From an uncultured Myxococcaceae bacterium (GTDB taxonomy: Bacteria; Myxococcota; UBA727; JABDBI01), in NCBI GenBank assembly GCA_964635635.1, contig CAZWPE010000001.1:107774-171773 (forward strand): 64,000 nt of DNA. The letters run 5' to 3'. The notes beneath the pieces were generated by a model. That model worked only from the letters and a program-made list of their open reading frames with translations. It ran no database searches and was not told where the DNA came from. Shown here in pieces: positions 2,236-53,448 of this stretch; the first letter of the stretch is position 1; the number at the start of each line of letters is the position of its first letter. Both the position numbers and the translations under genes were made by a program.

Positions 2236-3429
2236 ATGGCTCAGGAGCTTTCTTGGAAGGATTCGTTTGTTCGCGACTATTATTTAAAGAACCGTCTATC
2301 TTTGGCGTTTTATTCGAACTGCACCTTTGCTTTTGCAGATGAGGCGGGCTGCCCGGACGCTTGCTCGCGGGCGGCAAAGCTGATCGCTGCCGTTCGCCGT
2401 CAAAGACCGCCGGTGATTACGAGCCGAATTCCCAAACTGGGACGTGATGATTTGCGACAGTCCAAGGGAGATTGGATCGTGGTGGCTTGTTTGGGGCAGT
2501 TCTATCTTTTAAAGCAGGGCGCCACTGAAAATACATTGCGTGCTTTGGTTCATGATGCGCGTTGTTCTGCTCCAGAGCCTGAAGTTGGCTGGTTAACCCT
2601 GCTCCCCAGAGATGCTTTCGCTGAAGTTTACCCGCTGCTCGGCAAGAATGTAGAGCTTATTCAAAATGCAGTTATTCTTGTGGCTCTTGATTTAGATGCG
2701 GCTCCCAAAAATGATAACGAGTTTGCTCATGCTTTAGCCAATGGGGGTTTGGGTAACCGATGGTTTGATTTGTCGCTGCAATTGATTGTCACTGGCAACG
2801 GTAGAGCAGGGGGGAATACGGAACACACTGTTTATGATTCTTTGCCAGCTGGTACTTATGTGAATTCACTGATGAGTGATGTTCCTGCCGCTAGCGAAGA
2901 CCAAGGGTATGAAAAAATTCGTTGGCCCAATGACCTTAAAATTAGCCAGGCCATTGCTGAGGCGAAAAATTTTGCAGAGGCAGAAGTTTCTAAGCGCGAA
3001 ATACATTGCGTTCGAACCAGGGCGTTTGAACGAGATGTTGATGTTCAAATGGCGATCCAGTTGGCAGCAAAAGAAATATTCGGAGCACCACAGGTCACCA
3101 GTGAAGCTCTTAGTATGGCGCATATGCCAGAGGGACGTTATGCAACCATATTTTTTGAGTCACCTGAAGATTTGCAAAATCACCGGCAAAGAATCAAATC
3201 AGCCAAACTAGGCGAACCAATTCAAGTATTACCATGTGAAATCGTCACTTCAAACGCAGGGCACCATGAACACATTCCACTCATAGGCTTCACAGATACT
3301 GACCCAAATATTGTTGGAATCTCATATATTATGAAGCCAACCGAGACAGTATTTCACATTAAAGCAGATGGAGTTCACAAAGAAAAAGCCCGGAAGTATG
3401 CTTACTTTTTGAACCAGCTGTTGAGGTAG
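2236..3429 (+). CDS. Choline/carnitine O-acyltransferase family protein (short form lacking about 150 N-terminal residues relative to eukaryotic CrAT)
   Basis: NRWFDLSLQLIVTGNGRAGGNTEHTVYDS matches the catalytic-His block NRW[FY]DKSxQ..EH of carnitine acyltransferases. Downstream blocks (DVQMAIQLA, TSEALSMAHMPEGR, IVGISY) align with the CrAT C-terminal half. Confidence 0.7.
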   Translation: MAQELSWKDSFVRDYYLKNRLSLAFYSNCTFAFADEAGCPDACSRAAKLIAAVRRQRPPVITSRIPKLGRDDLRQSKGDWIVVACLGQFYLLKQGATENTLRALVHDARCSAPEPEVGWLTLLPRDAFAEVYPLLGKNVELIQNAVILVALDLDAAPKNDNEFAHALANGGLGNRWFDLSLQLIVTGNGRAGGNTEHTVYDSLPAGTYVNSLMSDVPAASEDQGYEKIRWPNDLKISQAIAEAKNFAEAEVSKREIHCVRTRAFERDVDVQMAIQLAAKEIFGAPQVTSEALSMAHMPEGRYATIFFESPEDLQNHRQRIKSAKLGEPIQVLPCEIVTSNAGHHEHIPLIGFTDTDPNIVGISYIMKPTETVFHIKADGVHKEKARKYAYFLNQLLR

Positions 3430-4808
3430 TTATACAGTTGTTTGGAACTGTCAAACAACCATGCAGCACCTGGCATTTCTTCTCTCTCTAGAGAAATCTC
3501 TCTTTCAATGTCTTCAAGTTTACTTTGAATTGTTGGATCATTTGGGTGGAATTTCATTAGTAGATTGCGTGCCATGTCGACAGTCTTCCGTGATTCAGCA
3601 TCTAAATCTAAAAAACTCAAAAGAGTTTCTTTGACTTTTTCATCTCTAAAGAAATTAGCGGCTTCATTGCGCACATACTCAGACCTATCCTCTAGGCATT
3701 GAGCAATGGCTTGATGAATCTTGGGATCTTGAGGCTTGATGGCGGCTAAAGCCTGGATGGCGGCTTCTCTTGCTCTCGGATATTCATTGCTCAGGCATTG
3801 AGCAATGGCCTGATGAATGCCGGGAGCTTGAGGTTTGATAAAGGCTAAAGCCCGAACGGCGGCTTGCCTTGCCTCACGATTTTCACGCTGCAGCAATTGA
3901 ACAAGGAATTGATGAATCTCTTGATCTTGAAGTTTGATAGAGGTTAAAGCGTCAACGGCGGCTTGCCTTACAAACCAATTTTCATCCTCCAGGCATTGAG
4001 CAATGGCTTGACGAATCTTGGGAACTTGAGGCTTGATGGCGGCTAAAGCCTGGAGGGCGGCTTGCCTTACCTCCGCATATGGATTCTCCAGGTGTTGAGC
4101 GATGGCTTGATGAATCTTGGGATCTTGAGGGTTGATGGCTTTTAAAGCCTGAACGGCAGCTTGCCTTACACTCCAATCTTTATCCCTCAGGGATTCAACG
4201 ATGACTTGATGAATCTTGGGATCTTGAGGCTTAATCGCTTCGAAGGCACTGATGGTAGCTATGCGTATGTGTGGATTGAGATCATTCAAATACCGAGCCA
4301 TGACTTCAAGGATATCTGAATCGATTGGTTTAACCTTAGCTAATGTTTCTAGAACGTCAACTATGTCTCCTCCTGAAGAACGTTCCGATTGCAATACTTC
4401 TTTAACGAGAGTTATGACAGCAGTTTCGTTACCCTTTTCAGCTGCAGAGCACAATTCAGCAACAGCGTTATTTGGATTTTTGTTGAATAAGCGCTGCCAA
4501 GTGGCTTCTGAGTAGTGCTGAATCCCCTCTTGGAATCCTTTGGAGGTTTTAGCTTGAGTCAAGAGACTTTTTGAAGAGTCACCTGAAAATGCAGCGATAC
4601 GTGCAGTAAAAGCAGGATTTTTAAACAATTCGTTTTTAGGAGCCGCGATGGCTTCTTTCTTGGTTTCAGGTACACGCAAAGGGCTCAAAGCTGCTTCATC
4701 TCTGCTCTGTCGATATTGGTCAGGTAGTTGCTTATACTCATCGCCCTTGCGGTTTTGTTGCTGTTGGTTTTCTTGAACAGAAATTTTTCCAGTAATACCT
4801 ATCTTCAT
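3402..4808 (-). CDS. HEAT/PBS-lyase-like repeat protein
   Basis: About 6-7 tandem 33-aa units (PQDPKIHQAIAQCLE..VRQAAVQALAAIK) typical of HEAT-like repeats. Confidence 0.8.
   Translation of the reverse strand: MKIGITGKISVQENQQQQNRKGDEYKQLPDQYRQSRDEAALSPLRVPETKKEAIAAPKNELFKNPAFTARIAAFSGDSSKSLLTQAKTSKGFQEGIQHYSEATWQRLFNKNPNNAVAELCSAAEKGNETAVITLVKEVLQSERSSGGDIVDVLETLAKVKPIDSDILEVMARYLNDLNPHIRIATISAFEAIKPQDPKIHQVIVESLRDKDWSVRQAAVQALKAINPQDPKIHQAIAQHLENPYAEVRQAALQALAAIKPQVPKIRQAIAQCLEDENWFVRQAAVDALTSIKLQDQEIHQFLVQLLQRENREARQAAVRALAFIKPQAPGIHQAIAQCLSNEYPRAREAAIQALAAIKPQDPKIHQAIAQCLEDRSEYVRNEAANFFRDEKVKETLLSFLDLDAESRKTVDMARNLLMKFHPNDPTIQSKLEDIEREISLEREEMPGAAWLFDSSKQLYNYLNSWFKK
3690..4290 (-). repeat. 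Tandem 99-bp DNA repeats (about 6 copies) encoding the HEAT-like units
   Basis: Recurring caggcattgagcaatggcttgatgaatcttgggatcttgaggcttgatggcggctaaagcc.. with a period of about 99 bp. Confidence 0.75.
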
Positions 4809-4995: not shown

Positions 4996-6192
4996 TTATG
5001 AGCTGCGCTGTAGAGTGCTTCCAATGATTACAACAGGGCTTCCTTGTAGGAATTCAGTAAAATCCAGAAGCTTTGGCTCTGCCAGGTGTTTGAACTCAAA
5101 AATACACGTTTCTTCTGTTCCGAACCAATTTTCCTGATTTACCAACATAAGTTTGTAGTGGTTTTTTAGATTGCGAACTTCAACACGAAAGTGTTTTTCT
5201 TGGTGGACGATTTGAGTACCTAACACTGTTTTTAGCTTGTGTAGATTGTAGGCCAAACTCTTGGCGAAAATTTTAACTTGATTTGGGCGTTTGGCTTTAT
5301 TGAGTACAGGCGCAAAAGACATGTAGGGGTATGCGCTCGAATCAAAGCACTGAGAAAGACCTTTATAGTGAAGTCCTGATTCAGTTTCGAGTGGGGGTAA
5401 AAATCGCTTGATAATCTGCTTTTGGCGGTCTGTGAATTTTTCAAAGAGGTTTAAAACTTTCATATCATTGATGTGGTCACTCTTCAAATTTTTACACCCT
5501 TCGAAGATTTTTTTCGCAGTCATGCCATGTTTGTCTTTAAGGCAGACTAGAGCGGGTGTGATGAATGGATGCGTGAGAAATGCTTCTACCTTCTCTGAAC
5601 TGCGAATAAGAGAGGCAAGATGAAGTGCACTTTGTCCTTCATGATTGATAGCGTCAAAAATAGAAGCTGTCATGTTTGGATGATGAAGTATTTTGATGAT
5701 TTGATTTGCCGAGGCATGCAGCATGTTACGGTGTAAGATAGTTTGCCCAAATGAATCTCGCTTGAGCCAGACGTCTTTTGAAAATCCAAGTTCGTCAAGT
5801 GTTTCAATGTCAGAGCGATCTGCAACGATGTCCATTGCGGTTTGATTATTGCTGTCTTGGATACCAACCACATCTCCTGTGGCAAAAGGATGCTCAATGA
5901 GTGTTTTAAATATGGTGAGAGTAGGCAAAGCTGCTGCATAGTGAAGAACCGTTCGGTTATTGGTGTCTTTTTGGGCAAATGTTTTGGAATCAAAATGCAT
6001 CGAATCTAAAATCCGCTCCACAGGTTCAAGACGTCCTTTTGAGACAGCGATATGCAGGGGAGTTTGAAATGCGTCGTTCAACTGCGTGATTTCGTTCTTG
6101 TCAAAAGTTTCTTCATGCAGTGGTTCTGGCTCGACAATACGCCAGAAGTTAGTGGTTCGGTATCCGCAGCTTGGGAGTGGCGCTTGAAGCAT
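4996..6192 (-). CDS. Ankyrin-repeat protein with a C-terminal domain of unknown function
   Basis: Repeated ankyrin signatures TPLHIAV, TVLHYAA, TILHRNM and SALHLAS. Confidence 0.8.
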   Translation of the reverse strand: MLQAPLPSCGYRTTNFWRIVEPEPLHEETFDKNEITQLNDAFQTPLHIAVSKGRLEPVERILDSMHFDSKTFAQKDTNNRTVLHYAAALPTLTIFKTLIEHPFATGDVVGIQDSNNQTAMDIVADRSDIETLDELGFSKDVWLKRDSFGQTILHRNMLHASANQIIKILHHPNMTASIFDAINHEGQSALHLASLIRSSEKVEAFLTHPFITPALVCLKDKHGMTAKKIFEGCKNLKSDHINDMKVLNLFEKFTDRQKQIIKRFLPPLETESGLHYKGLSQCFDSSAYPYMSFAPVLNKAKRPNQVKIFAKSLAYNLHKLKTVLGTQIVHQEKHFRVEVRNLKNHYKLMLVNQENWFGTEETCIFEFKHLAEPKLLDFTEFLQGSPVVIIGSTLQRSS

Positions 6193-6425: not shown

Positions 6426-9364
6426 TGCTGCAAACTCAAATCGAAGCTTTTGGTCTTAAACTTTTTGAGGAAATGCGTGGTGAAAAACCAGGCATTTTTA
6501 ACAGCGACTACTGGCAAGGAAAATTGATGGACTGGGTCATGAAAGATCCCAGTTTTAAAATCGACATGTTTCGTTTTGTCGATGTTTTGCCTCAACTTGA
6601 AACTTCAGGCCAGATTGCTGCCCACGTTCGTGAGTACTTGCTGAAAGAAGGCCGTCAGCTCCCCGCAGTGATTAACGTAGCCCTTAAAGCGGCCGCCAGT
6701 GGTTTGACCGCTGGAATAGCTGCAACCAGCATTCGTAAAAATATCAGCGATATGGCTGAGCGATTTATTGTGGGGCGTGATGCCAAGAGTGCGCTGTCTG
6801 AACTGCAAGCTTTGCATAAACAAGGCATCGCTTTTACCGTCGATTTGCTCGGCGAGTATACCTTGAGTGATGCTGAGGCAGATGAGTACAAAAATCGCTA
6901 TCTAGATTTGATTGCCAATATTGCAGGTGAAGCTGCCAAGTGGAAACCGGATTCAGTCATCGACGCAGTCCCACGCGTGAATGTGTCTGTGAAGGTCAGT
7001 GCGCTTGACCCCCAAGTGAAGGCTGTTGACCCGAAAGGTTCGGTGGAACGTCTGAAACAACGCCTGAGACCTCTGTTTGAAATGGCCATGAAGAATGGCG
7101 TATTTTTGAACCTTGATCTTGAGCAGTGGGAAGTTCATGGCATTACTTATGACCTGTTTGAAGAACTTCTTTTGGAGCCAGAGTTTGCAAAATATCCCCA
7201 TTTTGGGATTGTGATTCAGGCTTATTTGAAAGACTCGCTGCGTGATGCAGAACGTCTTCTTGCTCTCGCCAAAAAACGAGGGACCCCAGTTGGTGTTCGT
7301 TTGGTTAAAGGCGCATACTGGGACTTCGAAGTCGTGAACGCGAAGCAAAAGGGTTTCGAATGCCCAGTGTTTACGCAAAAAGCTGACTCTGATGTGAACT
7401 ACGAGCGCATCAGCAAGTTTTTGTTGGATCACATTGAGCATTTTAGGCCAGCATTTGGAAGTCACAATCTGCGTTCCATTAGTCACGCGATTGTTTATGC
7501 GGATAGTAAAAAAATCCCAGCGACGGCTTATGAAATTCAGATGCTTTATGGAATGGCAGAGCCAGAACGTAAGATTTTACGTTCTCGTGGAAACCTGGTT
7601 CGTGTTTATGCCCCGATAGGAGAGTTGCTTCCGGGTATGGCGTATTTGGTTCGGCGTTTGCTTGAAAACACGTCGAACTCTGGATTTTTGAAGCTTTCAC
7701 ATCAAGATGATGTGGATCCGAAGTTACTTTTGGTTGAGCCTGTTTCTCTCCCTCTCCCCTTGAGGGAGAGGGCTGGGGTGAGGGGTGAGTTTGAAAACTG
7801 CCCTTGGCTAGACTTTACGCGTGAAGAATCTCGAACAGCTTTTGCCAAAGCCATTGAAGCCTGGAAGCCTAAATTTCCAGTCACAGTCCCAGTGGTTATT
7901 GCCGGTGAAAAACAGGTCGGTGAGTCCGTGTTTGAACGCGTGACTCCCAACGATGGGCAAACTTTAGTGGCTAAAGTAGAGCTGGCCAGCAAAGCACAGG
8001 CTGAAAAAGCGATTCAAATTGCCACGCGTGCTTACCCTGCATGGCGAGATGGAGCTTTGGCTGAACGTGTAGAACGTTTAAACAAACTGGCTGATATATT
8101 GGAACGCGACCGTTTTGAATTAGCTGCGCTCATGTCCCATGAAGTGGCTAAGCCGTGGATTGAAGCGGATGCAGATGTCGGCGAAGCGGTTGATTTCTGC
8201 CGCTATTATGCTCAGCAGGCGCTCACAACACTTGCGCCCAGAAAACAAGGCAGTCTTTGGGGCGAAGATAATATTTTAAGCTATGAGGGCAGGGGGCCAA
8301 CACTTGTGATTGCTCCTTGGAATTTTCCCTTGGCCATTTTGTGCGGCATGGCAGCAGCAGCTCTTGTTGCTGGTAACTCTGTGATCTTAAAACCAGCAGA
8401 AACATCCAGTTTAACAGCAAAGATGCTGTTCGACCGTATGCTCGAAGCAGGTATTCCGAGTGACGTTGTCCAGTTCTTGCCGGGCCGTGGTTCTGAAGTA
8501 GGGGCGTATTTAGTTGAGCATCCACAAATTGCGCAAATTGCATTTACGGGCAGCAAGGAAGTTGGCCTGCAAATTATCGAAAAAGCGGCGCGAGTTCAGC
8601 ATGGCCAAGCACAAGTTAAGCGTGTGGTCTGCGAAATGGGCGGTAAAAATGCGATTGTGATAGACGACGATGCAGACTTAGATGAAGCAGCATTAGGTGT
8701 TATCCACAGTGCGTTTGGTTATGCAGGTCAAAAGTGTTCGGCAGCTTCGCGAATCATTGTCCATGCCAATGTTTATGACAGGTTTAAAAACCGGTTGGTT
8801 GAAGCTTGCAAGAGTCTATGCATTGCGCCTGCCACGAAACCTGGCTGTGGTGTTCCTCCGGTGGTTGATGCCAAATCCCAAAATCGCTTGCTCACTGAGA
8901 TTGAGTTGGCTGCTCGTGAACACAAATTGCTAATAAGTATCCCCCCTTTGCAAAAGGGGGGTCAGGGGGGATTTTTTGTCCCTGTAACGCTATTTGAAGT
9001 CCAAAACTCAAAATGCCGATTGATGCAAACAGAACTCTTTGGTCCAGTAATTGCGATTGCCAAGGCCAAGGACTTTGAAGAAGCCATTCAAATCGCAAAC
9101 GATACTGAGTTTGCTTTGACGGGTGCTGTTTATTCACGCAGCCCTAAGAATCTTGAATATGCACGAAAGGCCTTTAAGGTTGGCAATCTGTATCTTAACC
9201 GTGGAAGTACGGGTGCCATGGTTCATCGACAGCCATTTGGTGGCTTCAAAATGAGCGGCATTGGAACCAAAGCGGGTGGGCCAGATTACTTGATGCACTT
9301 TGTGGACCCCAGAGTGACCACTGAGAATACTTTGAGGCGTGGATTTACGCCGGATTTGGAATGA
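6425..9364 (+). CDS. putA: Bifunctional proline dehydrogenase / delta-1-pyrroline-5-carboxylate dehydrogenase PutA (no N-terminal DNA-binding domain)
   Basis: N-terminal PRODH TIM-barrel motifs followed by an ALDH domain (VCEMGGKNA, catalytic QKCSAASR, EEFGP-like ELFGPV). Confidence 0.9.
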   Translation: MLQTQIEAFGLKLFEEMRGEKPGIFNSDYWQGKLMDWVMKDPSFKIDMFRFVDVLPQLETSGQIAAHVREYLLKEGRQLPAVINVALKAAASGLTAGIAATSIRKNISDMAERFIVGRDAKSALSELQALHKQGIAFTVDLLGEYTLSDAEADEYKNRYLDLIANIAGEAAKWKPDSVIDAVPRVNVSVKVSALDPQVKAVDPKGSVERLKQRLRPLFEMAMKNGVFLNLDLEQWEVHGITYDLFEELLLEPEFAKYPHFGIVIQAYLKDSLRDAERLLALAKKRGTPVGVRLVKGAYWDFEVVNAKQKGFECPVFTQKADSDVNYERISKFLLDHIEHFRPAFGSHNLRSISHAIVYADSKKIPATAYEIQMLYGMAEPERKILRSRGNLVRVYAPIGELLPGMAYLVRRLLENTSNSGFLKLSHQDDVDPKLLLVEPVSLPLPLRERAGVRGEFENCPWLDFTREESRTAFAKAIEAWKPKFPVTVPVVIAGEKQVGESVFERVTPNDGQTLVAKVELASKAQAEKAIQIATRAYPAWRDGALAERVERLNKLADILERDRFELAALMSHEVAKPWIEADADVGEAVDFCRYYAQQALTTLAPRKQGSLWGEDNILSYEGRGPTLVIAPWNFPLAILCGMAAAALVAGNSVILKPAETSSLTAKMLFDRMLEAGIPSDVVQFLPGRGSEVGAYLVEHPQIAQIAFTGSKEVGLQIIEKAARVQHGQAQVKRVVCEMGGKNAIVIDDDADLDEAALGVIHSAFGYAGQKCSAASRIIVHANVYDRFKNRLVEACKSLCIAPATKPGCGVPPVVDAKSQNRLLTEIELAAREHKLLISIPPLQKGGQGGFFVPVTLFEVQNSKCRLMQTELFGPVIAIAKAKDFEEAIQIANDTEFALTGAVYSRSPKNLEYARKAFKVGNLYLNRGSTGAMVHRQPFGGFKMSGIGTKAGGPDYLMHFVDPRVTTENTLRRGFTPDLE
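7746..7789. repeat. Family-1 palindromic element copy (CCCTCTCCCCTTGAGGGAGAGGGCTGGGGTGAGGGGT), in-frame in putA
   Basis: 38-bp stretch identical except for one base to 26520-26557. Confidence 0.75.
8937..8978. repeat. Family-2 palindromic element copy (ATCCCCCCTTTGCAAAAGGGGGGTCAGGGGGGATTTTTTG), in-frame in the putA ALDH domain
   Basis: About 41-bp motif shared with 44469-44507. Confidence 0.75.
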
Positions 9365-10332: not shown

Positions 10333-10397
10333 ATTTGAAAAACAAATAAGATTTATTTATTATATAAAAAGTTTCAGTGTCTGGTGAGGGGGATCCA

Positions 10398-12899
10398 ATG
10401 AGTCAAAGATTAGGTTTCAGTCCGGCTGAATTCAGAGAACAAGGTGACTACGAGCAAGAGGGTGAGAAACGTGTTTCGGGAAAGGATGCGGGTGTTGATG
10501 TTTATGAGGCGCCCTCTTTGCTGGAACAAGTTTCTAGAGGCTTAACTCCTCAAATTATAGAGAGTTATTTGAAAGAACCGGATGGAGAAGAAAAAACTAA
10601 GCTTCTACAAGCAATGGGCCAAAAAATAAAACCTGAGACATTGTCTAAACTGCCGCCAGAATCAGTGTCGAAACTTCATGAAATTTTTCAGAATAAGGGC
10701 AAACTCGAGGTAAGATGGGCGATCGAGGATGCGCAGTGGGAAAATGAAAAAATGTCGAGGTTTGTGATAGCCCCATACCGACGTAAACTCGATTTTGCAG
10801 ATTTAGAAGAGTATCTAAAAAAAGGAGCGAGTATTAACTTTCGACTGCCCGAAAATAATGCAAACGCAAACGACAACAGTGGCAATTTTCCGGGGATGAA
10901 CCTGATTCAGATGGCATTATCTCTAAATGATATGGATACTGTGAGTAAGCTATTTGCGAGAGGTGCTCAATTTACAGAAGAAGATGCTAATTATATGTAT
11001 CCCCAAGAATATTGGTTGGGCAATGTAAGTTTGGCCCATAGACTCTTGGAGTCTGGTTACACAGATGCTTTTATTTGGCTGATTGATCATGGGGCTAACC
11101 CTAATCAAATCATTTCAAAATATGGGGACCCTTTTGATGCATTGAGCCTAGCGCAAGCAGCTTTAAAAAAAGGCGATGTGATGGCATTTGAAAAACTCAT
11201 TGAAAAAGGTGCTGATATCAACCTGCCATTTCCCCGTACGAGTACAACAGGGGAATATGCGAATAAAACTCTTGCTCAGGTTGTCCTAGAGAGGGGGGAT
11301 ACAAACGCCCTTAGGCTTCTCCTGGAAAAAGGTGTTTCTCCTAACCAAACTTTTCCTTCTGCTTGGAATTCTGAGGCTACCTACAAAGGCATGACTCTTT
11401 TGCAGGTGGCTATGATACTAGGGCATACAGATATCGCTATGCTACTGCTCGATCATGGAGCCGATCCAGATCGAGTCTTCCCAGGGACCATTGATGAACA
11501 CCGTGATTATGCTGGCAGGACACCGATTCAGATTGCTCTGAGGCAGAACAATACGGGGCTGATTGAGAAACTCATCGAGCGTGGTGCATCAAGCAAGGGT
11601 TTAACGAGTCCGTTGACTTTTAAAGCGTTGCGTTTACCACGAGAAGATTTGGAATCGATTAAGCCATTAGAAAATGGCGATAGTATTGAACAAATTATCG
11701 AAAAATCAAAAGATAAAAAATGGATTCAAGAATTCTTTGGAGACCCAAAACCTGCCAACGAAGGAGACCAAAAACCTGTCATTGAATATGTGGACGACCA
11801 TCATTCGAAAAACGGACATACTCGCGAAGACATCATTAACGGTCTTCAGGTTTTTTTCGAAAGAATTCAGAAAAGAGAGGCTGTTCTGGGGACGCCTCCG
11901 TCAAATCAACTTAAAGAGTTAAATGCGTATTATGACAACATGTTCCATCGCTTGCAGCATATTTTTTCGTTCTTAGAACAGAAAGAGATTGCTCAAGATA
12001 TCAAACGGGCTGCTCTCGATATGATTTATGGGGGTTCTTTGGCTTGCGGTACGGCTTGGTTCAATGAGGTTAAGAGTGCCTATGAACTTCTTAAATCGCA
12101 GATTAAAGCACCCCAACAAAGTTCTGCCACAGCAGCAAGCGCTGCAGATGAAAGTTTTCAAAGTGAGTATGAGTCGATCATTGAGCAGCGCTTGTATGAA
12201 TTTAGAAGGCGTTGTTTTGAATCTGCTCTGCCCAACAACAATACGCACACCTATAACGCCTACATGCGCGAGCTGGGGGTTGAGTTTGGGGTGGCGGGAA
12301 AAAATTCAAGCTATGACGATCCAACCGTTGTTCCTATTTCAGAGTACGAAAAAGCTGTTTTCAGACACAAGGTCGAGTCTCTTTATGAGCCAAAACTTAT
12401 CATTGATTTTATATATAAAATTTCCAAAGATAAAACACAAATAGGTGAGGGGATTATCCCTGGTCTGCTTGCTGACTATGGACCTAAAGTAAGCCAAACT
12501 CAAGCTAATAGGTATTTTGTGTTGGAAAATAAGAAGGAAAAAGATGAGCTCAGTGGCGAAGAGTTGAGGGAATATGAGGAACTTACAAAAATTATCTCTC
12601 AGGAAGATGATTATACGGAGATGACGCTTGGAAAAGAATACGAGCCAACCCGAGAAGGCGTGGAATATTTGCTTAAAGCTTTAGGCATATTACGAATTAG
12701 AGACCTGAAAGGGATAAAGCTCGATCCATGGAGCCAATTCTTAATAAGACGTAAACAAAAGGAGCTCGAGTCAGCAGAGGAAGGCTCCGAAAGGCAAAGA
12801 GACCTAAAAGAATGGCTTTCAGAAGCTCAGGCTGAGCAAATTCAAGAAGTTAAGCAAACAAAGAAGGCTTCATCAGCCACAGCTGCCGCTAGTTCTTAA
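10398..12899 (+). CDS. Large ankyrin-repeat protein with an acidic, coiled-coil-rich C-terminus (effector-like); ORF opens at GTG 10377, ATG 10398 preferred
   Basis: At least five ankyrin units (GMNLIQMALSLND.., DALSLAQAALKKGD.., KTLAQVVLERGDTNALRLLLEKGVSPN, MTLLQVAMILGHTDIAMLLLDHGADPD, RTPIQIALRQNNTGLIEKLIERGA). GAGGGGGA lies upstream of the ATG. Confidence 0.75.
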   Translation: MSQRLGFSPAEFREQGDYEQEGEKRVSGKDAGVDVYEAPSLLEQVSRGLTPQIIESYLKEPDGEEKTKLLQAMGQKIKPETLSKLPPESVSKLHEIFQNKGKLEVRWAIEDAQWENEKMSRFVIAPYRRKLDFADLEEYLKKGASINFRLPENNANANDNSGNFPGMNLIQMALSLNDMDTVSKLFARGAQFTEEDANYMYPQEYWLGNVSLAHRLLESGYTDAFIWLIDHGANPNQIISKYGDPFDALSLAQAALKKGDVMAFEKLIEKGADINLPFPRTSTTGEYANKTLAQVVLERGDTNALRLLLEKGVSPNQTFPSAWNSEATYKGMTLLQVAMILGHTDIAMLLLDHGADPDRVFPGTIDEHRDYAGRTPIQIALRQNNTGLIEKLIERGASSKGLTSPLTFKALRLPREDLESIKPLENGDSIEQIIEKSKDKKWIQEFFGDPKPANEGDQKPVIEYVDDHHSKNGHTREDIINGLQVFFERIQKREAVLGTPPSNQLKELNAYYDNMFHRLQHIFSFLEQKEIAQDIKRAALDMIYGGSLACGTAWFNEVKSAYELLKSQIKAPQQSSATAASAADESFQSEYESIIEQRLYEFRRRCFESALPNNNTHTYNAYMRELGVEFGVAGKNSSYDDPTVVPISEYEKAVFRHKVESLYEPKLIIDFIYKISKDKTQIGEGIIPGLLADYGPKVSQTQANRYFVLENKKEKDELSGEELREYEELTKIISQEDDYTEMTLGKEYEPTREGVEYLLKALGILRIRDLKGIKLDPWSQFLIRRKQKELESAEEGSERQRDLKEWLSEAQAEQIQEVKQTKKASSATAAASS

Positions 12900-15172: not shown

Positions 15173-15194
15173 AACAATACTGTGCGAAAATAAG

Positions 15195-15228
15195 GGATAT
15201 GAAATTATTTTTCATATCCTTTTTTTTG
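15195..15228 (+). terminator. Rho-independent terminator of groESL (ggatatgaaa..ttcatatcc + T8) overlapping the start codon of the next gene
   Basis: 9-bp stem, 6-nt loop, followed by tttttttt. The ATG at 15199 lies inside the 5' arm of the stem. Confidence 0.7.
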
Positions 15229-17316
15229 GAAATTTTTTCCGGGTGTTCAGGCAGTGGTAGTCTGCAAACAGCTTATTGGGTGTCGCCTGATGGAAATGAT
15301 GCATGGCCTGGAACCCAAGAACAACCACTTGCTACCCTGGACAAGGCCCAAGAAGCCATTCGTCTATTGCCAGTCAATGACAGAGTTGGAGTGACAGTAA
15401 CACTTCGAGCTGGACAATATAGACTTAAACAACCGCTCGTTTTTGAACCTCAGGATTCGGGCACTAAAAAGTCCAGTATTATTTACCAGGCTGCTCCAGG
15501 AGAAACGGCTGTCATTTCAGGTTCTATTGCTGCTCAGAATTGGTCTTTGGTGGATACAAAATTGAATATCTACCGTAGCTCTGTTGGGCAAGTTAAAACA
15601 CGCCAGTTATATGTGAATGGCCAACGTCGAGTAAGAGCTAAGACAGAGGATTACCCTCCCGGATTTTATCCTAATTTTAACACGGGCGGGATTCAGTTTA
15701 TCCCTACGACGACTCTGAATCCAAACTTATGGGGCAATGTTAAAAATATTGAAGCAGTGATTTTAACTCAATGGAAAATGATGCGGGTTCCACTGAGCAG
15801 CGTTAATCCTACATGCAGCGTATGTTCTCCACCTAAAAATGCCCCCACAACGATACCGGGGGTAATTAAAATGCAAGAACCAGCCTGGAACAATGCTAAT
15901 TTGCTGAGCGAACTCTGGAGTTTTTGGCAGGTGACTTGGTTTGAGAATGCGTACCAATTCTTAGATGAACCAGGAGAATGGTATTTGGATGAAAATGCAG
16001 GGGTGTTGTATTATATCCCAATGCCTGGCGAAGACATGAGTCAGGCTGAGGTTGAGCTGCCAATCTTAGAAAGTTTGCTTCAAGGCACTGTGTCGAATAT
16101 TCGATTTCAAGGTTTGACCTTTGCTTATGCTACTTGGCTTGGAGCTAGTAGTAATAATGGCTATGTCGCTGACCAGGCGGGGCAAATTTTGATTGGAAAG
16201 GGCTATCAGAAAAATGACATAGGGCATTTTCAAAATACTTTTGATACTCCGGCAAATATTAGTTTTAGTGCGTCTCAAAATATTGAGCTCAGAGGCAATA
16301 TTTTTAAGCATCTCGGGGCTGTTGGAGTTGCTTTTAGAGCTGGCAGTCAAAATAATATTATTCAAGACAATTTGTTTAAGGATATTTCTTCGTCTGCTAT
16401 CCAACTTGGAGGGGTGAGTGCAGAGGATGCTCACCCTGTGAATGCGCAGCAGATTGTTTTTAACAATTTGATTCATAATAATATGATTCGTGAAACGGGT
16501 CGTGAGTATTATGACTCGGCAGGGATTTTTGCCGGATTCACTCAAAATACAACGATTAGTAATAATACAATCGTCGATGTTTCCTGGTCTGGCATTTCAA
16601 TGGGTTGGGGTTGGGGGTTGCTTGACCCAGGTAGTTTTTTAGGACTTCCAGGTGCGACCCCAAACCCATGGGGGAGCTATACACAGCCAACACCGAATGC
16701 AAATAATCAAATCGTTAGGAATCGAATTGACAGTTTTCTGAATAAGGTTTGGGACGGTGGTGCAATTTATACAACTGGCCAACAGGGAAGTAGCGCACAA
16801 AATGGTTTGCTGATTCAAGGAAATGTAGCGACTTCACGCAATCCTGCCTTGGGCGGTAATACCTTCTATGATGACGGTGGGAGCCGTTATATTACCCTGA
16901 AGCAAAATGTTTCGCTTCATAATCCAACTGGAAAAATGTTTTTCGGTCCTTTGCCCAGTAGTCAGGATCCATTCTATCTAGCGGTTAGTCTTCCATGTCA
17001 GCCAAAATATGGAGCTTTGTGCCTGCTGCTGACATTTTTTCCTTATGATTTGGATATTATACCCTATGGAAGTGATATCGGTGGCTGTAGGACCTATGGC
17101 GATATCACTTACCAGGAAAATTATTTTTTAAATAAAGAATTTTTTGACATTTGTCCGTATACAGATTCGTCGGGAATCTCATACCCAACCAACTTGGCAT
17201 ATGTGAACAATGTATTGATATCAAAAACATCAGATGTTCCTCCCGAGTTGCTTGATGCAGCAGGAGTTCAAAGCACTCCTGCCACAATCCCGAGCGAAGA
17301 GTGGCTTAGACCCTAG
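15199..17316 (+). CDS. Right-handed parallel beta-helix repeat protein, probable lipoprotein/secreted (pectate-lyase-like fold)
   Basis: Weak lipobox IFSGC. Repeated N-N-x-I/V beta-helix rungs ([44 protein letters not shown]). Confidence 0.7.
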
Positions 17317-18809
17317 AAGAACCCAAGTGCATTTGATGAGTACGATACCAGCAAATTTTTGGTTTGTTGGTAGTGCTCGAGCATCATGCGATGTGTTTCA
17401 CGTCCAATGCCAGACTGCTTATAACCTCCAAAGGCAGCATGTGCAGGGTAGGCATGATAGCAGTTAGTCCATACGCGCCCGGCTTCAATGCCTCGGCCCA
17501 TTCTGAACGCACGGTTCATATCACGGGTCCAAACACCAGCCCCTAGGCCATAGGGAGTATCGTTTGCAATTTTCAAAGCCTCTTCTTCGGTCTTGAAGGT
17601 GGTGACAGAAAGCACGGGACCAAAGATTTCTTCTTGGAAAATACGCATTTGGTTGTGGCCTTTGAAGACTGTTGGCTTCACGTAAAACCCATTCGCTAAA
17701 TCGCCTGGAAGCACTGTTCTTTCGCCACCAGTGAGGCACTCAGCACCTTCTTTCTTGCCAATCTCGATATAGTTGAGGATTTTTTCAAGCTGTTCTGCAG
17801 ACGCTTGAGCACCCAGCATGGTGTTTGGATCCAGTGGATTGCCTTGTTTGATTGCAGCGACACGTTTGAGTGCACGTTCCATGAATTGACCGAAGATGGA
17901 CTCTTGAATCAAGGCGCGTGAAGGGCAGGTGCAGACCTCGCCTTGGTTCAGGGCAAACATCGTGAATCCTTCAAGAGCTTTGTCAAAGAATGCATCATCA
18001 GCATTCAAAATATCTTCAAAGAAAATATTGGGGCTTTTCCCACCGAGCTCGAGCGTGACTGGCGTCATATTTTGACTGGCGTATTGCATAATTAAACGCC
18101 CAGTGGAGCTTTCACCGGTGAATGCGATTTTGTTGATGCGCGAGCTGGAAGCCAAGGGCTTTCCAGCTTCAAGGCCAAAGCCGTTCACAATATTGAGCAC
18201 ACCGGCAGGCAGCAGATCTTGAATCAGCTCCATCATGACCAGTATTGAAGCAGGTGTTTGTTCGGCGGGTTTGAGTACCACGCAGTTGCCTGCTGCAAGC
18301 GCTGGGGCTATCTTCCAAGTGGCCATCAAGATTGGAAAATTCCAAGGGATAATCTGACCGACGACACCCAAAGGCTCTTTGAAGTGGTAGGCATAGGTTT
18401 CGTGGTCAATCTCTCCAATGCTACCTTCTTCAGAGCGGATGCAGCCTGCAAAGTATCTAAAATGATCAATCGCTAGTGGGATATCTGCTGCGCGGGTTTC
18501 TCGAATAGGTTTGCCATTGTCCCAAGTCTCAGCTGTTGCAAGCTTGTCCAAATTTGCTTCGAGCCGGTCGGCGATTTTGTTTAAAATAACGGCGCGTTCG
18601 GCCGGTGAAGTTTTGCCCCAAGATTTTTTAGCTGCATGGGCGGCGTCGAGAGCTAGATTGATATCTTCCTCGTTGGAGCGTGGAATTTCGCAAATGGCTT
18701 GGCCAGTCATGGGGGTAATGTTGGTGAAATAGGCGCTGGATTTGGGTTCGGTCCATTGGCCGCCAATGAAATTTCCATATCTCGATTTGAACGGATTATT
18801 CGTCGTCAT
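17313..18809 (-). CDS. NAD(P)-dependent aldehyde dehydrogenase (AldB / betaine-aldehyde dehydrogenase-like)
   Basis: ALDH glutamate and cysteine motifs ([17 protein letters not shown]) and EEIFGPV. Confidence 0.9.
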
Positions 18810-18834
18810 ATTTTTCTCCTATGACGAAAAATGT

Positions 18835-20547
18835 TCACTTCAGATCAAAGAAGTCAACGTAGTAGCCAGGTGCTTCTCCAGTATTCTTTCCAGGATTCGA
18901 ATAGCAAGTAAAGGTCGAGGTTTTATCGTCAAAAGGAAATGTGTAGGCTGTAGGACACGCCTGCTTCATGAATACCAACCAGGGTTGGATATTCGTTGCC
19001 CAAGTAGAATTAGTAGCACTGCAATTGCCTTGAGACGCAAGTACATTGGGCCAGGTGCTTAGATATGGATTGCCAGGAAATGTTGGGCAACCGCAATCGC
19101 ACGAAGTGCCGGATTGATAACACGAGTTAGGCGCAGTGCCTGTGCAGCCAAACATGTCTGAATAAGTGTAGGATGTTCCTGAGATGCTGCCGCACTGAAG
19201 TGGGGATATGTTTGATGTTCCAGGGTTTGTGCCGCATATCTGGTCAGCGCTCCAATAGGCAATAAACGTGCCACACACCTTGGCAACGGTTGAAATGCCA
19301 GTGTTTTGCGCAAGACCGCAGAGTTGTCCGCTAGCGCAATCTGAGTCTTTGCTGCATGAGCAGTATTGATTACCTGCTCCAGTAGGTGAGCCGGAAATAC
19401 AGCTTTTGTTGATGGTAGGTAAAACTTGTCGCAGCAACGTGCTTTGATTTTTGGGGGTGATGCCTGGAATCGAAGGTGTAACACTCCAGCTACAGGCACG
19501 CAGTACACCTAAAGAGTCAGCTTGTGTGAGAGCGCCCGGCGTTGCGCAGAAATAAGGGTCAGTTTGACTCTTGGTTGTTGTGGTTGAGTCAGGTTCCATG
19601 GCAATGCCAATGTTCATGCCATTGATAATACTGACGTCATAATAATCGAGGTTTGGTTGAGGGGCTGTGAATGTGAATTCTGCCAAGCTTGCAGGAGGAA
19701 CTCCACCGGTTCCAGCGTTGCAGCTTCCATCTTGTGGAGCACAGGAGCCATTGTTTGGACAGTCTTCTGCATAAGTGTGACCAGATAGAGGGGTATATCC
19801 TGGGCCGCAGTTAGTTTGAGTGCAAGCTTGACCTGAAATCTGACATTTGAAACCACCTCCATTGTTAATGCATTGATCTCCGATGGTTGTACAAGTAGAA
19901 CATCCAGCGCTATTCGTGGAGCATTCACCTGAGGCACAGTTTTGGCCATTGGAGTCGCAACCAAAGCGTGCAAACAAATTTCCACTCCATTGAACCGAGC
20001 TTAGAGCGTTTGTTTGTCTACCGTGTTTTGAAGAGGCTCCTAAGGGAGCAGGAAAACAAAGTTTCAGTGATTGAGTTGGTGAGAGTTTAGGGGTGTTGGC
20101 GCCAACCATTCTGGGTTGCTTCCAGAAACACTGAAATCCATTGCCCGCTACTGTATTGGTTGCGCATACGCCCAGTGTTCCACAACTCTGTGATGCTGCG
20201 CTGCAGCCGCAGACACCCGTTGGCCCGACCGCATCAGAGCCGGTAATTATACAGTTGTTGCCCATGTTGGCACAGTCCGTATTTTTTCGGCAGAAAAATG
20301 AACCGCTGGTCAGACCTACCCATACAGTTTGCGATGAATTGTTGGTGACAATCATGGGCCTTTCGCCAGTAGAACAAAAATCAAGCACGGGCCGATTGTC
20401 TGGTGGATTGGGATTATTTGGATTATTGGGACCACTTGGGTTATTCGGCCCACTGGGATTGCTAGGCACATTTGGATCATTGCTCTTCGAGCAACCAAGC
20501 CCAACAAGAATCAAAACAACCCAAAACAAACGCATAAAAACCCCCAT
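18835..20547 (-). CDS. Large cysteine-rich lipoprotein with a thaumatin-like C-terminal domain
   Basis: Lipobox LVGLGC. Pro/Asn-rich linker. Thaumatin family signature blocks YDVSIINGMNIGIAMEP and CPTAYTFPFDDKTSTFTC (compare CPDAYSYPQDDxTSTFTC). Confidence 0.65.
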   Translation of the reverse strand: MGVFMRLFWVVLILVGLGCSKSNDPNVPSNPSGPNNPSGPNNPNNPNPPDNRPVLDFCSTGERPMIVTNNSSQTVWVGLTSGSFFCRKNTDCANMGNNCIITGSDAVGPTGVCGCSAASQSCGTLGVCATNTVAGNGFQCFWKQPRMVGANTPKLSPTQSLKLCFPAPLGASSKHGRQTNALSSVQWSGNLFARFGCDSNGQNCASGECSTNSAGCSTCTTIGDQCINNGGGFKCQISGQACTQTNCGPGYTPLSGHTYAEDCPNNGSCAPQDGSCNAGTGGVPPASLAEFTFTAPQPNLDYYDVSIINGMNIGIAMEPDSTTTTKSQTDPYFCATPGALTQADSLGVLRACSWSVTPSIPGITPKNQSTLLRQVLPTINKSCISGSPTGAGNQYCSCSKDSDCASGQLCGLAQNTGISTVAKVCGTFIAYWSADQICGTNPGTSNISPLQCGSISGTSYTYSDMFGCTGTAPNSCYQSGTSCDCGCPTFPGNPYLSTWPNVLASQGNCSATNSTWATNIQPWLVFMKQACPTAYTFPFDDKTSTFTCYSNPGKNTGEAPGYYVDFFDLK

Positions 20548-20586
20548 GCGTTTATTGTATCAAACTTGGAACAAATACATACTGTT

Positions 20587-21411
20587 TTACACGAAAAAGT
20601 CAGGCATGAGGTCTTTAGTGCCTGGCACACAGGCATATTGGTCAAAATCTTGAACGCCAACTTGTTTACGTAAGAAGTCTTCATCTATGAGCCACTGGCC
20701 GGTAATTTCGCCCCCAGGGGTTAAGAATAGTGCGTGGGCGGCATCGGCTACAATGTCTGGCTTGCGCGACTGTTTCATGCCGTCTTCACCCATCAGCATG
20801 TTGATGGCAGCAGTCCAAATAGCCGTGCGAGGCCATAGGGAGTTGACCGAGATTTTGCGCTCACGAAACTCTGCGGCCATGCCTAAGCTGCAAAAGCTCA
20901 TGCCGAACTTGGTAATGGCATAAGCAACGTTATTTTGTAGCCACTCTGGTTTAAAACTGACTGGAGGGGAAAGATTCAAGATGTGTGCGTTGGATGATTT
21001 TTCCAAATAGGGCAAACAAGCGCGTGAGCACAAGAAAGTGGCTCGGGTGTTGACGTTCATCATGAGGTCAAACGATTTAGGTGGTGTGGCATCTGTGGTG
21101 GTAAGTTTAATCGCTCCGGCATTATTGACCAAAATATCAATACCGCCAAAGTGCTCACCAGCTTGTTTGACACAAGATTCAATCTGGTCAGCATCTCGAA
21201 CGTCTAAAACAAGAGCCAATGCCTTGCCACCAGCGGCTTCCACTTCTTTTGCGACTGTGTGGATGGTTCCGGGCAACTTTGGGTTTTCTTCAGCTGTCTT
21301 AGCTGCGATTACGATGTTGGCCCCATCAGCAGCGCACTTGAGGGCAATGGCACGACCGATTCCGCGGCTGGCGCCAGTAATAAAAATCGTCTTGTTTTTG
21401 AGTGTCATCAT
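20587..21411 (-). CDS. SDR-family short-chain dehydrogenase/reductase
   Basis: TGASRGIGRAIA Rossmann motif; YxxxK-like region. The ORF extends to 21504 but the N-terminal extension looks non-coding. Confidence 0.85.
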   Translation of the reverse strand: MMTLKNKTIFITGASRGIGRAIALKCAADGANIVIAAKTAEENPKLPGTIHTVAKEVEAAGGKALALVLDVRDADQIESCVKQAGEHFGGIDILVNNAGAIKLTTTDATPPKSFDLMMNVNTRATFLCSRACLPYLEKSSNAHILNLSPPVSFKPEWLQNNVAYAITKFGMSFCSLGMAAEFRERKISVNSLWPRTAIWTAAINMLMGEDGMKQSRKPDIVADAAHALFLTPGGEITGQWLIDEDFLRKQVGVQDFDQYACVPGTKDLMPDFFV

Positions 21412-21477
21412 GTCGCCAAAATAAGTTTTTATAGATTCGCTTGCAAGCTGTTTCCTTGTCCGCCTAAGATCTGCCAA

Positions 21478-21753
21478 ATGGAAAGACAACAAACAGAACA
21501 TCACCTGTGGAAAAAAGCTGAAAGCCGAGCTGCTTTTAAGTTACACGTTTTAAGTTATGTGGCTGTGAATCTAGGGCTTTGGCTTCTTTGGTATTTAACA
21601 ACATCGGAACACCAGGTAATGGGTGCGTGGCCAATGTATATTAGTGCATTCTCAGCGCTTGGACTTTTAGTGGAATTTGCAGGTGCATTCTTAAATCTTA
21701 ATCAGCATGATATGGCACAAAAAGAGTTTGAGAAGCTGAAGCGTGGGCAATAA
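21478..21753 (+). CDS. Small hypothetical membrane protein (about 91 aa, two TM helices)
   Basis: MERQQTEHHLWKK.. followed by two hydrophobic segments. Weak evidence. Confidence 0.3.
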   Translation: MERQQTEHHLWKKAESRAAFKLHVLSYVAVNLGLWLLWYLTTSEHQVMGAWPMYISAFSALGLLVEFAGAFLNLNQHDMAQKEFEKLKRGQ

Positions 21754-47603: not shown

Positions 47604-48752
47604 TCAGTTCCCACAAGCCTTAAACCCATCTATGAAACCAATACGATTATTTTTTCGATCGAAATGGATGTATTGGTTTTCCATCACGGCTTGACCTAGA
47701 ATAACGAAATCGCTGCCTGTAGGTGCAAAACCGAATACGCAGAGGTTTTCTTGTGTGCTCTTCATGTAAGATTCTGGGCGAATGGTTAGTTGGAGACCAC
47801 CTTCAAAGGTGAGGATGATATTTGGAAGATTGGCGAGTCTCACACTGCTGCAAACGAGTTCTTTCTCGCCTGCCCAAAATTTTTCGTCTGTGGGTAGATT
47901 GCTATTTGCCGCTTGAATTTGTTTCACCATGGCTGAGTGCATAGCAGATGGGATCGCGCTTACAGTTGTTCCACTGTCTAGGATGGTGCAAGTTCTAGAA
48001 CTTTCAGCTTGAGCACATGGGGTTCCACCATTTGGGTACGGATATTCTGGGAAATCTCCAAGTTTGTTATCCGAATTCACGCTACCGAGATAAGCGGACG
48101 TCGCATTTAAAACATACCAACTTTTCTCTTTAACTGGAGTATAATTGGCGTTTGTAAAGCTACCTAGGGATGAGTTGGTGCCGCCAAAAATAATTTGGCT
48201 GTTACCATCGTGTGCAACGCCACATAAGAGTGTGCTGAATTCATTACTCATGCCAGTTGTGGTAGTTAGATCTGCAAAGAAAGTATGATCCTGATTACCT
48301 TGAGCGACACCCTCATAGGCAAGACCCATGATTTGAGGAGTACATGCACTGCCTGTGCATGACTGGATGCTTCCAATGTAGTAGTTTGGAATCCCTGCAC
48401 CGCAACTGAAATCAACAAAGCCGATGTAATTTTGAACGCTGATTGTTGTTTGACCGCCATAAAATATTGGAAAGGGTGAACCTGTGAGTTCTAGATTGTT
48501 GGTGTTAAATCCGCTGCTTGTATTATCAATGACTAAATTAGAGCTTCCTGTGTCTGCTACTAATTCCATTGTCTGGCCATTGACCACTAGTGAAATGTGA
48601 TATTCGAGCGTAGAGCCGACATTTTGTCTCAGTGCGCTTCTGTTTGTTACAAATACATGCTTGAGGCCGTAGGTTGGGTTACTGCAGGGTGGGTTTGACT
48701 TGCTGCAGGCTATAAACAAGATAATCGAAAAGAGTAAACTAGAAAGTTTCAT
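47604..48752 (-). CDS. Pepsin-like (family A1) aspartic protease lipoprotein
   Basis: Lipobox LFIACS. Two catalytic motifs VADTGSSNLVI (pepsin DTGSSNLWV) and ILDSGTTVSAIP (pepsin DTGTS). Confidence 0.75.
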   Translation of the reverse strand: MKLSSLLFSIILFIACSKSNPPCSNPTYGLKHVFVTNRSALRQNVGSTLEYHISLVVNGQTMELVADTGSSNLVIDNTSSGFNTNNLELTGSPFPIFYGGQTTISVQNYIGFVDFSCGAGIPNYYIGSIQSCTGSACTPQIMGLAYEGVAQGNQDHTFFADLTTTTGMSNEFSTLLCGVAHDGNSQIIFGGTNSSLGSFTNANYTPVKEKSWYVLNATSAYLGSVNSDNKLGDFPEYPYPNGGTPCAQAESSRTCTILDSGTTVSAIPSAMHSAMVKQIQAANSNLPTDEKFWAGEKELVCSSVRLANLPNIILTFEGGLQLTIRPESYMKSTQENLCVFGFAPTGSDFVILGQAVMENQYIHFDRKNNRIGFIDGFKACGN

Positions 48753-53256: not shown

Positions 53257-53448
53257 ATATCTATCACCACCACTTGATGCTCATGAGACTGTTCAGTCTC
53301 CCCAGTGTCGTCTGGTGACGGGTATTCTAAGTCTGACTCGTCTGGCGTTGGAAGCCTAACGCTTTCATCGTGTTTTTTTTCTCGTTCGCGTTTGCGTTCG
53401 TTTTCATCTTCAATCACCCAAGGGGGTGGAAGTCGGTTGGCCAATCTC

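Follow-up and report, generated by a model that had tools for sequence, protein, structure and literature searches.

A predicted lipoprotein with an enlarged thaumatin domain from an uncultured Myxococcaceae bacterium

A stretch of 64,000 nucleotides from contig CAZWPE010000001.1 of an uncultured Myxococcaceae bacterium, hereafter the window, carries a minus-strand gene for a 570-aa cysteine-rich protein that an earlier note had described as a thaumatin-like lipoprotein, forming a presumed operon with a short-chain dehydrogenase/reductase (SDR) gene and an aldehyde dehydrogenase (ALDH) gene. Judged by its sequence and by a structural model, the protein belongs to the thaumatin family and has the thaumatin fold, and it adds a member to an already known, functionally uncharacterised bacterial thaumatin family. 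We consider it somewhat probable that it is an envelope lipoprotein with an enlarged thaumatin domain, encoded by a stand-alone gene, which would act as an outer-membrane-tethered glycan binder and possibly as a weak glucanase; that the SDR and the ALDH are ordinary cytoplasmic enzymes and chance neighbours of this gene forms part of the same explanation and shares its probability.

The search against Pfam PF00314 (Thaumatin) that had been proposed in the earlier note matched the protein in three stretches with 51.1 bits, above the gathering score of 27.4 (E 1.7e-13), and the same domain is carried by 116 of the 116 homologues having a Pfam annotation. In the Protein Data Bank (PDB), phmmer retrieved the thaumatin-like proteins of cherry, grape and apple with E-values down to 1e-8, through blocks at residues 184-216, 226-352 and 505-553, and a profile of 32 family members reached E 1e-21 against PDB thaumatin-like proteins. 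The AlphaFold2 model, built on the family alignment with a predicted local distance difference test score (pLDDT) of 73.6 and a predicted template-modelling score (pTM) of 0.75, gave 26 Foldseek matches to PDB at E<=1e-3, all of them thaumatin or thaumatin-like proteins with probability 1.00; the alignments cover about 505 query columns against targets of 200-240 residues, with target-normalised template-modelling scores (TM-scores) of 0.55-0.67. The PF00314, phmmer, profile and Foldseek scores lie far above what a chance similarity in a Cys-rich sequence would give. Both motifs quoted previously were also found, YDVSIINGMNIGIAMEP at residues 303-319 and CPTAYTFPFDDKTSTFTC at residues 531-548, but the thaumatin blocks, genuine as they are, had been placed only at the C-terminal end of a protein whose domain spans approximately residues 58-570. 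The strict PROSITE pattern PS00316 (G-x-[GF]-x-C-x-T-[GA]-D-C-x(1,2)-[GQ]-x(2,3)-C) is unmatched, and a relaxed form, CASGECSTNSAGC, matches at residue 204; the strict form is likewise absent from all 117 homologues, a plant thaumatin-like protein included, and hence is a weak criterion.

Since the Foldseek and phmmer blocks span the mature chain and the N-terminal strand PMIVTNNSSQTVWVG is similar to the first strand of thaumatins, as seen in the family alignment and in the plant comparison, the mature protein is one single thaumatin domain enlarged about 2.5-fold. The family-wide insertion 1, which the plant thaumatin-like protein P0116 lacks, has conserved cysteines at positions 86, 92, 113, 115, 122, 128 and 140. 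A clade-specific insertion falls between the fourth and fifth canonical cysteines and appears in hhalign as an insert relative to the plant thaumatin-like protein; it is present in the window protein, P0002, P0003 and P0005, shorter in P0001 and missing from most members, the cysteines between 216 and 269 being conserved in just 3-16% of the family. Further downstream, a region with 14 cysteines, mostly more than 90% conserved, and with pLDDT values of about 65-90 replaces and extends thaumatin domain II; neither phmmer nor hhalign aligned any canonical thaumatin-like protein to it by sequence. Pfam and NCBIfam searches matched no family to the two Cys-rich insertion segments. Both family-wide insertions carry an alike short Cys motif (family consensus C..D.DC(P/S)(T/S)...G.C...C), exemplified by CRKNTDCANMGNNC and CSKDSDCASGQLCG within residues 86-140 and 383-425 (about 20128..20292 and 19273..19401), which hints at their derivation from a repeated Cys-rich module.

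The chain contains 41 cysteines, i.e. the lipobox Cys19 and 40 in the mature protein, bearing out the approximate figure of 40 given in the earlier note, and a typical family member has 33 (one in the lipobox and 32 others). About 20 disulfide bonds are predicted for the mature protein, and folding would therefore have to occur in the oxidising periplasm. Six of the 16 cysteines that form the eight canonical disulfides could be placed by alignment (C197, C204, C209, C276, C531 and C548); the first and the last of the canonical set appear by eye to be lost, with a Ser at the first position and a C-terminus (...VDFFDLK) devoid of Cys.

The N-terminus, MGVFMRLFWVVLILVGLGC, offers at the sequence level what defines a bacterial lipoprotein, namely a signal peptide and a lipobox with an invariant Cys. 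The motif VGLGC at residues 15-19 matches the PROSITE-type lipoprotein pattern, with Cys19 as the predicted lipidated residue and Ser at +2, and a hydrophobic N-terminus ending in Cys followed by G or S is found in nearly all of the 32 aligned family members. The true start is probably the second ATG at 20535 (Met5), which would give a protein of 566 aa, because the homologues begin at the Met5 position and a GGGGG run lies upstream of this second ATG. The mature chain has a computed mass of approximately 57 kDa and a pI of about 5.1. The Pro/Asn-rich linker reported previously does exist, but it lies immediately after the lipobox and precedes the whole thaumatin domain; AlphaFold2 modelled residues 1-48 with pLDDT <50 and the tether is predicted to be disordered. 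An imperfect tandem repeat of three 18-bp units at 20407..20460 encodes the (PSGPNN)n portion of the tether, whose length and sequence diverge strongly from those of the nearest relative (42% identity over residues 5-64).

Eukaryotic antifungal thaumatin-like proteins have an acidic cleft formed by the five residues R-E-D-D-D (PMC3048497, PMC13148976). We located the corresponding positions by aligning the window protein to the plant protein P0116, by eye and with hhalign. The plant segment WSGRIWGRTDC pairs with WSGNLFARFGC, placing N190 at the canonical Arg; the LAEF block shared in hhalign (SLAEFTL in the plant) gives E290; plant DYYDVSLVDGFN pairs with DYYDVSIINGMN, so that D304 is retained and the following Asp becomes N309 (VDGFN to INGMN); and YSYAYDD pairs with YTFPFDD, giving D540/541. 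The motif thus reads N190-E290-D304-N309-D541, with three of the five canonical residues kept. Across the 32 aligned members E290, D301, Y303, D304, S306, I308, N309, G310, D540 and D541 never vary and N190 hardly does. No other part of the family is as well conserved in this alignment as the cleft strands, and this speaks for a conserved site of binding or catalysis. Among the 117 hits, LegT included, IING is near-universal and WSGN predominant, the equivalent of N309 being Asn also in LegT-type proteins, and the sole plant hit has WSGR and VDGFN. At the sequence level, therefore, the bacterial cleft differs systematically from its eukaryotic counterpart, Asn taking the place of a positively charged and of a negatively charged residue. 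A dinoflagellate protein of 731 aa, P0050 of Effrenium voratum, combines the bacterial-type cleft motif IINGFN with WSGK and a PAN domain, which suggests that the bacterial long form was transferred into a eukaryote or that the assembly is contaminated.

That thaumatin-like proteins are rare in bacteria, as the earlier note had stated, is true only in part: the family is uncommon, yet it has many members, some of them already named, and the structure of a bacterial thaumatin-like protein (7P22) has been solved. The exact protein is absent from a collection of 5.8 billion proteins, where the best match is 72% identical and is followed by about 45 full-length relatives at E<=1e-29. A profile search of 1.84 billion cluster representatives retrieved 402 clusters at E<=1e-30, rising to 2111 at the looser E<=1e-3, and in most of the top matches the entire enlarged domain was covered in one stretch; the family thus counts no fewer than 402 clusters at 50% identity. 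Among 185,579 species genomes (one genome per species), 117 loci were recovered with two narrow peptide patterns and confirmed, and their record labels include Deltaproteobacteria, Myxococcales, Polyangiaceae, Bdellovibrio, Binataceae, Burkholderiales, Halothiobacillus, Legionella and Coxiellaceae. Several members have been named "thaumatin family protein" by NCBI. Some relatives fuse the same thaumatin domain to Big_5 (Ig-like), ASH, NPCBM-associated or PAN domains, and such fusions fit a surface binding role.

In the explanation that we favour, the thaumatin lipoprotein would be exported by the Sec pathway, lipidated at Cys19 and folded under the oxidising conditions of the periplasm, and it would probably be sorted to the outer membrane, given a Ser and no Asp at +2. 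The tether of about 38 Pro/Asn-rich residues would hold a rigid, protease-resistant thaumatin domain off the membrane, and the conserved cleft could bind a polysaccharide, of the beta-glucan type or another, derived from eukaryotic prey, from a eukaryotic host or from the environment, with weak hydrolytic activity at most. Beta-1,3-glucan is a known ligand of the thaumatin cleft, and certain thaumatin-like proteins act as endo-beta-1,3-glucanases (PMC3048497, PMC13148976). By homology, a beta-1,3-glucan-type ligand would be the default, but the Asn/Asn change may bear on both specificity and hydrolysis. Several points nevertheless weigh against this explanation: the function is assigned by homology to eukaryotic thaumatin-like proteins with which the overall identity is only about 11-18%; with substitutions at two of the five canonical cleft positions, the ligand may not be a beta-1,3-glucan; the +2 sorting rule is that of Escherichia coli and may not hold in this lineage; 85 residues of the AlphaFold2 model fall in low-confidence loops with pLDDT <50; across 87 loci, neither carbohydrate-active genes nor transport genes show a consistent linkage to the family; and the short gaps without terminator would allow co-transcription of the SDR, thaumatin and ALDH genes here.

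A true enzyme, i.e. a membrane-tethered endo-beta-1,3-glucanase similar to catalytic thaumatin-like proteins or to GH64 and digesting fungal, oomycete or algal walls or laminarin, is in our opinion unlikely. The invariant Glu290, Asp304 and Asp540/541 do lie in the cleft strands, and the activity of nematode thaumatin-like proteins has been attributed to Arg, Glu and Asp cleft residues (PMC13106811); however, the canonical Arg and one cleft Asp are replaced by Asn in the close family, the thaumatin-like glucanase activities reported so far are low, and the family has no linked sugar-uptake genes at the 87 loci. Pfam yielded no GH64 match at E<=1, and GH64 structures are missing from both the profile and the Foldseek matches; membership of GH64 was rejected on these sequence and structural grounds. 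We regard as quite unlikely that the protein serves as an anti-eukaryote weapon or host-interaction factor, permeabilising or binding fungal or protist membranes or receptors as is thought for osmotin-type proteins and LegT. Its lipid anchor is at odds with free secretion, the locus has no linkage to a secretion system, the acidic cleft tied to antifungal activity is altered, and LegT itself is listed as a protein of unknown function (PMC4256840), even though the long thaumatin domain is common to both proteins (NCBIfam profile positions 429-759, 86 bits; P0087), the window is unusually rich in eukaryote-like domains and antifungal activity is widespread in thaumatin-like proteins (PMC3048497).

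Thaumatin has been classed as a eukaryotic motif in studies of Legionella genomes (PMC4256840), and the gene adjoins a variable interval, but that it was acquired recently by horizontal transfer from a plant, a fungus or an animal is hardly conceivable. The best matches down to E 1e-29 are all bacterial, the sole plant hit covering 10% of the query, and the protein bears its own family signature (WSGN, IING, 32 core cysteines, lipobox and large insertions); the GC content of the gene (48.4%) is in line with that of its neighbours (45-49%), the window averaging 45%; and a relative with 87% GroEL identity also has the gene, at another locus. These bacterial matches, the GC content and the family-specific motifs led us to discard recent transfer from a eukaryote. 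Very improbable, too, is a functional operon in which the envelope protein would, for instance, liberate or capture a sugar or alcohol for oxidation by the two dehydrogenases. The gene layout and the lengths of both gaps (39 bp between the SDR and thaumatin genes, 25 bp between the thaumatin and ALDH genes) are as the earlier note gave them, the three genes being co-directional, although the ALDH gene falls outside the interval to which it had assigned the cluster. A consensus scan revealed no terminator-like site in either gap, an AGGAG ribosome-binding site precedes the ALDH start, and the SDR-thaumatin order is retained in the nearest relative. Gene order is not conserved, however, among related genomes: the contexts of five homologues were checked, and those at 36-55% identity lie in unrelated surroundings, namely beside feoA-feoB in two cases, among acyl-CoA carboxylase and HMG-CoA lyase genes, after a DUF4198 gene, and others. 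In a tblastn search of 86 loci with the window SDR and ALDH, an orthologous SDR turned up solely in the nearest relative and the ALDH nowhere; searches with the beta-helix protein and SufB of the window likewise gave nothing that recurred. When every gene lying within 4 kb of the thaumatin gene at 87 loci was clustered, no recurrent partner emerged, the largest "neighbour" cluster being merely the N-terminal half of 850-aa long proteins. Furthermore, the nearest relative has a hairpin and a converging groEL 3' end where the ALDH gene would be, and the SDR and ALDH are cytoplasmic as opposed to the exported thaumatin protein. The operon proposed as a functional unit was thus not sustained by the comparison. 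A metagenome scan with the SDR for an ancestral SDR-ALDH adjacency found no close relative, the best match having 56% identity, and no ALDH or thaumatin gene nearby, and it is uninformative. The lesson for annotation is that a neat three-gene cluster should not be taken as a pathway.

The closest relative, GCA_964484075.1, shares with the window 99% identity in GroEL, 98% in SufB, 95% in the SDR and only 72-75% in the thaumatin protein. Its locus L001 retains the order of the Suf genes, the SDR and the thaumatin gene, the SDR adjacency being common to that relative only; past the thaumatin stop, 88 nt (6913..7000) are made up of a strong hairpin and the converging 3' end of groEL, without ALDH. 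There groEL and the thaumatin gene lie tail to tail, so that the ALDH adjacency is not common to the nearest relative. In the groEL contig of the same assembly (L087, 9269..12501), groEL is followed by an AAA_14/DUF4143 gene, a 34-aa groEL 3' remnant, the same hairpin, a 42-aa thaumatin 3' remnant, a SET-domain gene and, at the contig end, a second groEL 3' remnant; this end would join L001. The corresponding interval of the window (15173..18834) contains instead the beta-helix/GH141_M lipoprotein gene and the ExaC-type ALDH gene, and no duplicated groEL or thaumatin 3' remnants were detected in the window. From this arrangement of genes and remnants, the groEL-thaumatin junction is read as an insertion hot spot, struck repeatedly in the relative. 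In the "Myxococcales bacterium nzgw262" assembly, that of the relative with the 87% identical GroEL, the thaumatin gene is 51% identical. The closest labelled GroEL (85-86% identical) is recorded as "Myxococcaceae bacterium" and others as "Deltaproteobacteria bacterium", the lineage being uncultivated.

Relative to the nearest relative, the non-synonymous divergence (dN) of the thaumatin gene amounts to 0.19, as compared with 0.012-0.10 in five flanking genes. The two proteins are about 90% identical in the cleft core (residues 252-331), as against 42-62% over the signal/tether and the insertions, and their clade-specific insertions are of unequal length. Fast-changing insertions around a constrained core are what an exposed envelope protein would show. 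The Nei-Gojobori proportion of synonymous differences is also higher, and seemingly saturated, in the thaumatin gene (0.83 vs 0.36-0.58 in neighbours), but at four-fold sites in conserved codons the excess is modest (0.60 vs 0.35-0.54) and was ascribed to weaker codon constraint; allelic replacement or recombination of the gene was considered on these grounds and no claim is made for it.

Table 1. Features of the thaumatin gene, its neighbours and the eukaryote-like gene set, in window coordinates
Feature	Position	Strand	Evidence
Thaumatin-family lipoprotein ORF, 570 aa	18835..20547	-	ORF list, Pfam PF00314, AlphaFold2, Foldseek
Signal peptide and lipobox (predicted), residues 1-19 (...LILVGLGC)	20491..20547	-	VGLGC pattern match; hydrophobic N-terminus in aligned family
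Pro/Asn-rich low-complexity tether, residues 20-57, SKSNDPNVPSNPSGPNNPSGPNNPNNPNPPDNRPVLDF	20377..20490	-	Sequence; low pLDDT
Single expanded thaumatin domain, residues 58-570	18838..20376	-	Foldseek span, phmmer blocks, N-terminal strand
Family-wide Cys-rich insertion 1, about residues 83-160, after first thaumatin strands	20068..20301	-	Family alignment
Clade-specific Cys-rich insertion, about residues 216-275, 8 extra Cys	19723..19902	-	Alignment, hhalign
Cleft strands LAEFTF...LDYYDVSIINGMN, residues 290-310, with E290, D301, D304, N309	19618..19680	-	Invariant columns in 32 members
Enlarged disulfide-rich region, about residues 353-526	18970..19491	-	Cys conservation, model
SDR-family oxidoreductase, 274 aa, upstream neighbour	20587..21411	-	Pfam adh_short E 2.6e-40; NCBIfam PRK08278 409 bits vs cut-off 250
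ExaC-type ALDH, 498 aa, downstream neighbour	17313..18809	-	NCBIfam AcaldDHExaC 928 bits vs cut-off 900
Lipoprotein with GH141 insertion domain and right-handed beta-helix	15199..17316	+	Pfam GH141_M 37 bits, Beta_helix 28.6 bits
Eukaryote-like gene set	2236..3429	+	
Eukaryote-like gene set	3402..4808	-	
Eukaryote-like gene set	4996..6192	-	
Eukaryote-like gene set	10377..12899	+	
Eukaryote-like gene set	47604..48752	-	
Eukaryote-like gene set	53305..54486	+	

The thaumatin protein has no paralogues within the window, and an Rfam scan of the window returned one tRNA and nothing else. The beta-helix/GH141_M gene encodes a second lipoprotein, with a signal ending in ...FSGCSGSG, and converges on the ALDH gene with a 4-bp overlap; its product is possibly a polysaccharide hydrolase or lyase, and tblastn found no counterpart of it in the 86 loci of relatives. 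On the other side, an ORF at 21259..21753 (+) sits between the SDR gene and sufB, divergent from the SDR, and ends in a hydrophobic segment resembling two helices (LGLWLLWYL / ISAFSALGLLVEFAGAF). Its overlap with the long form of the SDR ORF, which begins with GTG, speaks for the shorter SDR with its start at 21411. With regard to metals, feoA-feoB lie 33-38 bp downstream of the thaumatin gene on the same strand in two nearer homologues at 46-51% identity (L002/L009, 8113..10065; L005, 6992..8951), the window gene is two genes away from the suf operon, and the DUF4198 gene mentioned above precedes the thaumatin gene of P0020. An iron or metal theme around thaumatin genes is possible, without statistical support.

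The eukaryote-like proteins encoded in the window comprise a choline/carnitine O-acyltransferase, a HEAT-repeat protein, two ankyrin-repeat proteins of 398 and 840 aa, a pepsin-like aspartic protease (PF00026) and an Rsm22-like methyltransferase; a SET-domain protein is encoded by the closest relative. The gene for the 840-aa ankyrin-repeat protein (10377..12899) lies between an LPG-synthase-like gene and the groES/groEL region and has no counterpart in the closest relative, whose corresponding region is otherwise collinear and has rpmB immediately after the LPG-synthase gene. Such gene content resembles that of protist-associated bacteria, e.g. Legionella, and on this circumstantial basis the organism may interact with eukaryotic cells; if so, these cells would provide a natural target for the thaumatin protein. 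It is tempting to speculate that the long bacterial thaumatins constitute a distinct class of hyper-stable surface lectins, marked by at least 32 core cysteines, an Asn/Asn cleft and usually a lipid anchor or an adhesin-type fusion, which would recognise eukaryotic cell-surface or cell-wall glycans on behalf of protist-associated or predatory bacteria, including Legionella with its LegT; this generalisation is doubtful at present. If it were true, the window protein, as a minimal member with a single domain, would be a good starting point for studying the function of the LegT-type domain.

Thaumatin-like proteins are usually seen as eukaryotic defence proteins, and yet a sizeable bacterial branch exists with a doubled disulfide framework and an altered cleft. 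With the PR-5 proteins of plants and fungi (osmotin, tobacco PR-5d, Mal d 2 / 3ZS3 and Pru av 2 / 2AHN), the window protein shares the fold (Foldseek probability 1.00, TM-score 0.55-0.67), the Pfam family, the blocks WSG..A/GR..GC, PP..LAEF, DYYDVS..G.N and CP.AY.Y..DD.TS.FTC, and an extracytoplasmic, disulfide-stabilised character. It differs in its size of about 510 residues versus about 200, its 40 cysteines versus 16, its bacterial lipobox anchor, its N-E-D-N-D cleft, the apparent loss of the first and last canonical cysteines and the unmatched strict PS00316. The GH64 laminaripentaose-producing beta-1,3-glucanases have in common with it a beta-sandwich core and a carboxylate-lined groove for beta-1,3-glucan, according to PMC13106811, citing Wu et al. 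2009; the window protein, in contrast, lacks the GH64 alpha/beta domain and any match to these enzymes in sequence or structure. The Amycolatopsis rifamycinica protein 7P22 documents that thaumatin-like proteins occur in bacteria and has the same bacterial thaumatin fold (Foldseek E 5.8e-6, target-normalised TM-score 0.67), but it is a short domain of canonical size (about 221-244 residues) without insertions and with no lipoprotein anchor known. LegT (lpg1328), a Dot/Icm substrate of Legionella pneumophila, contains in its C-terminal domain the same long bacterial thaumatin type, with the WSGN, VINGFH, YWSADQVCG and CCGC blocks, and both genomes carry eukaryote-like proteins. Unlike the window lipoprotein, LegT has about 820 aa and a long N-terminal region, and the LegT equivalog NCBIfam NF045527 scored 86.4 bits against a cut-off of 1200, aligning at positions 429-759 of 776 (the C-terminal 330 residues), so that the window protein is not a LegT. 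The small lipoprotein version would nonetheless offer a tractable biochemical and structural model for the thaumatin domain of LegT, and the main value of the present analysis lies in this compact model and in the record of the family-wide N-E-D-N-D cleft and doubled disulfides.

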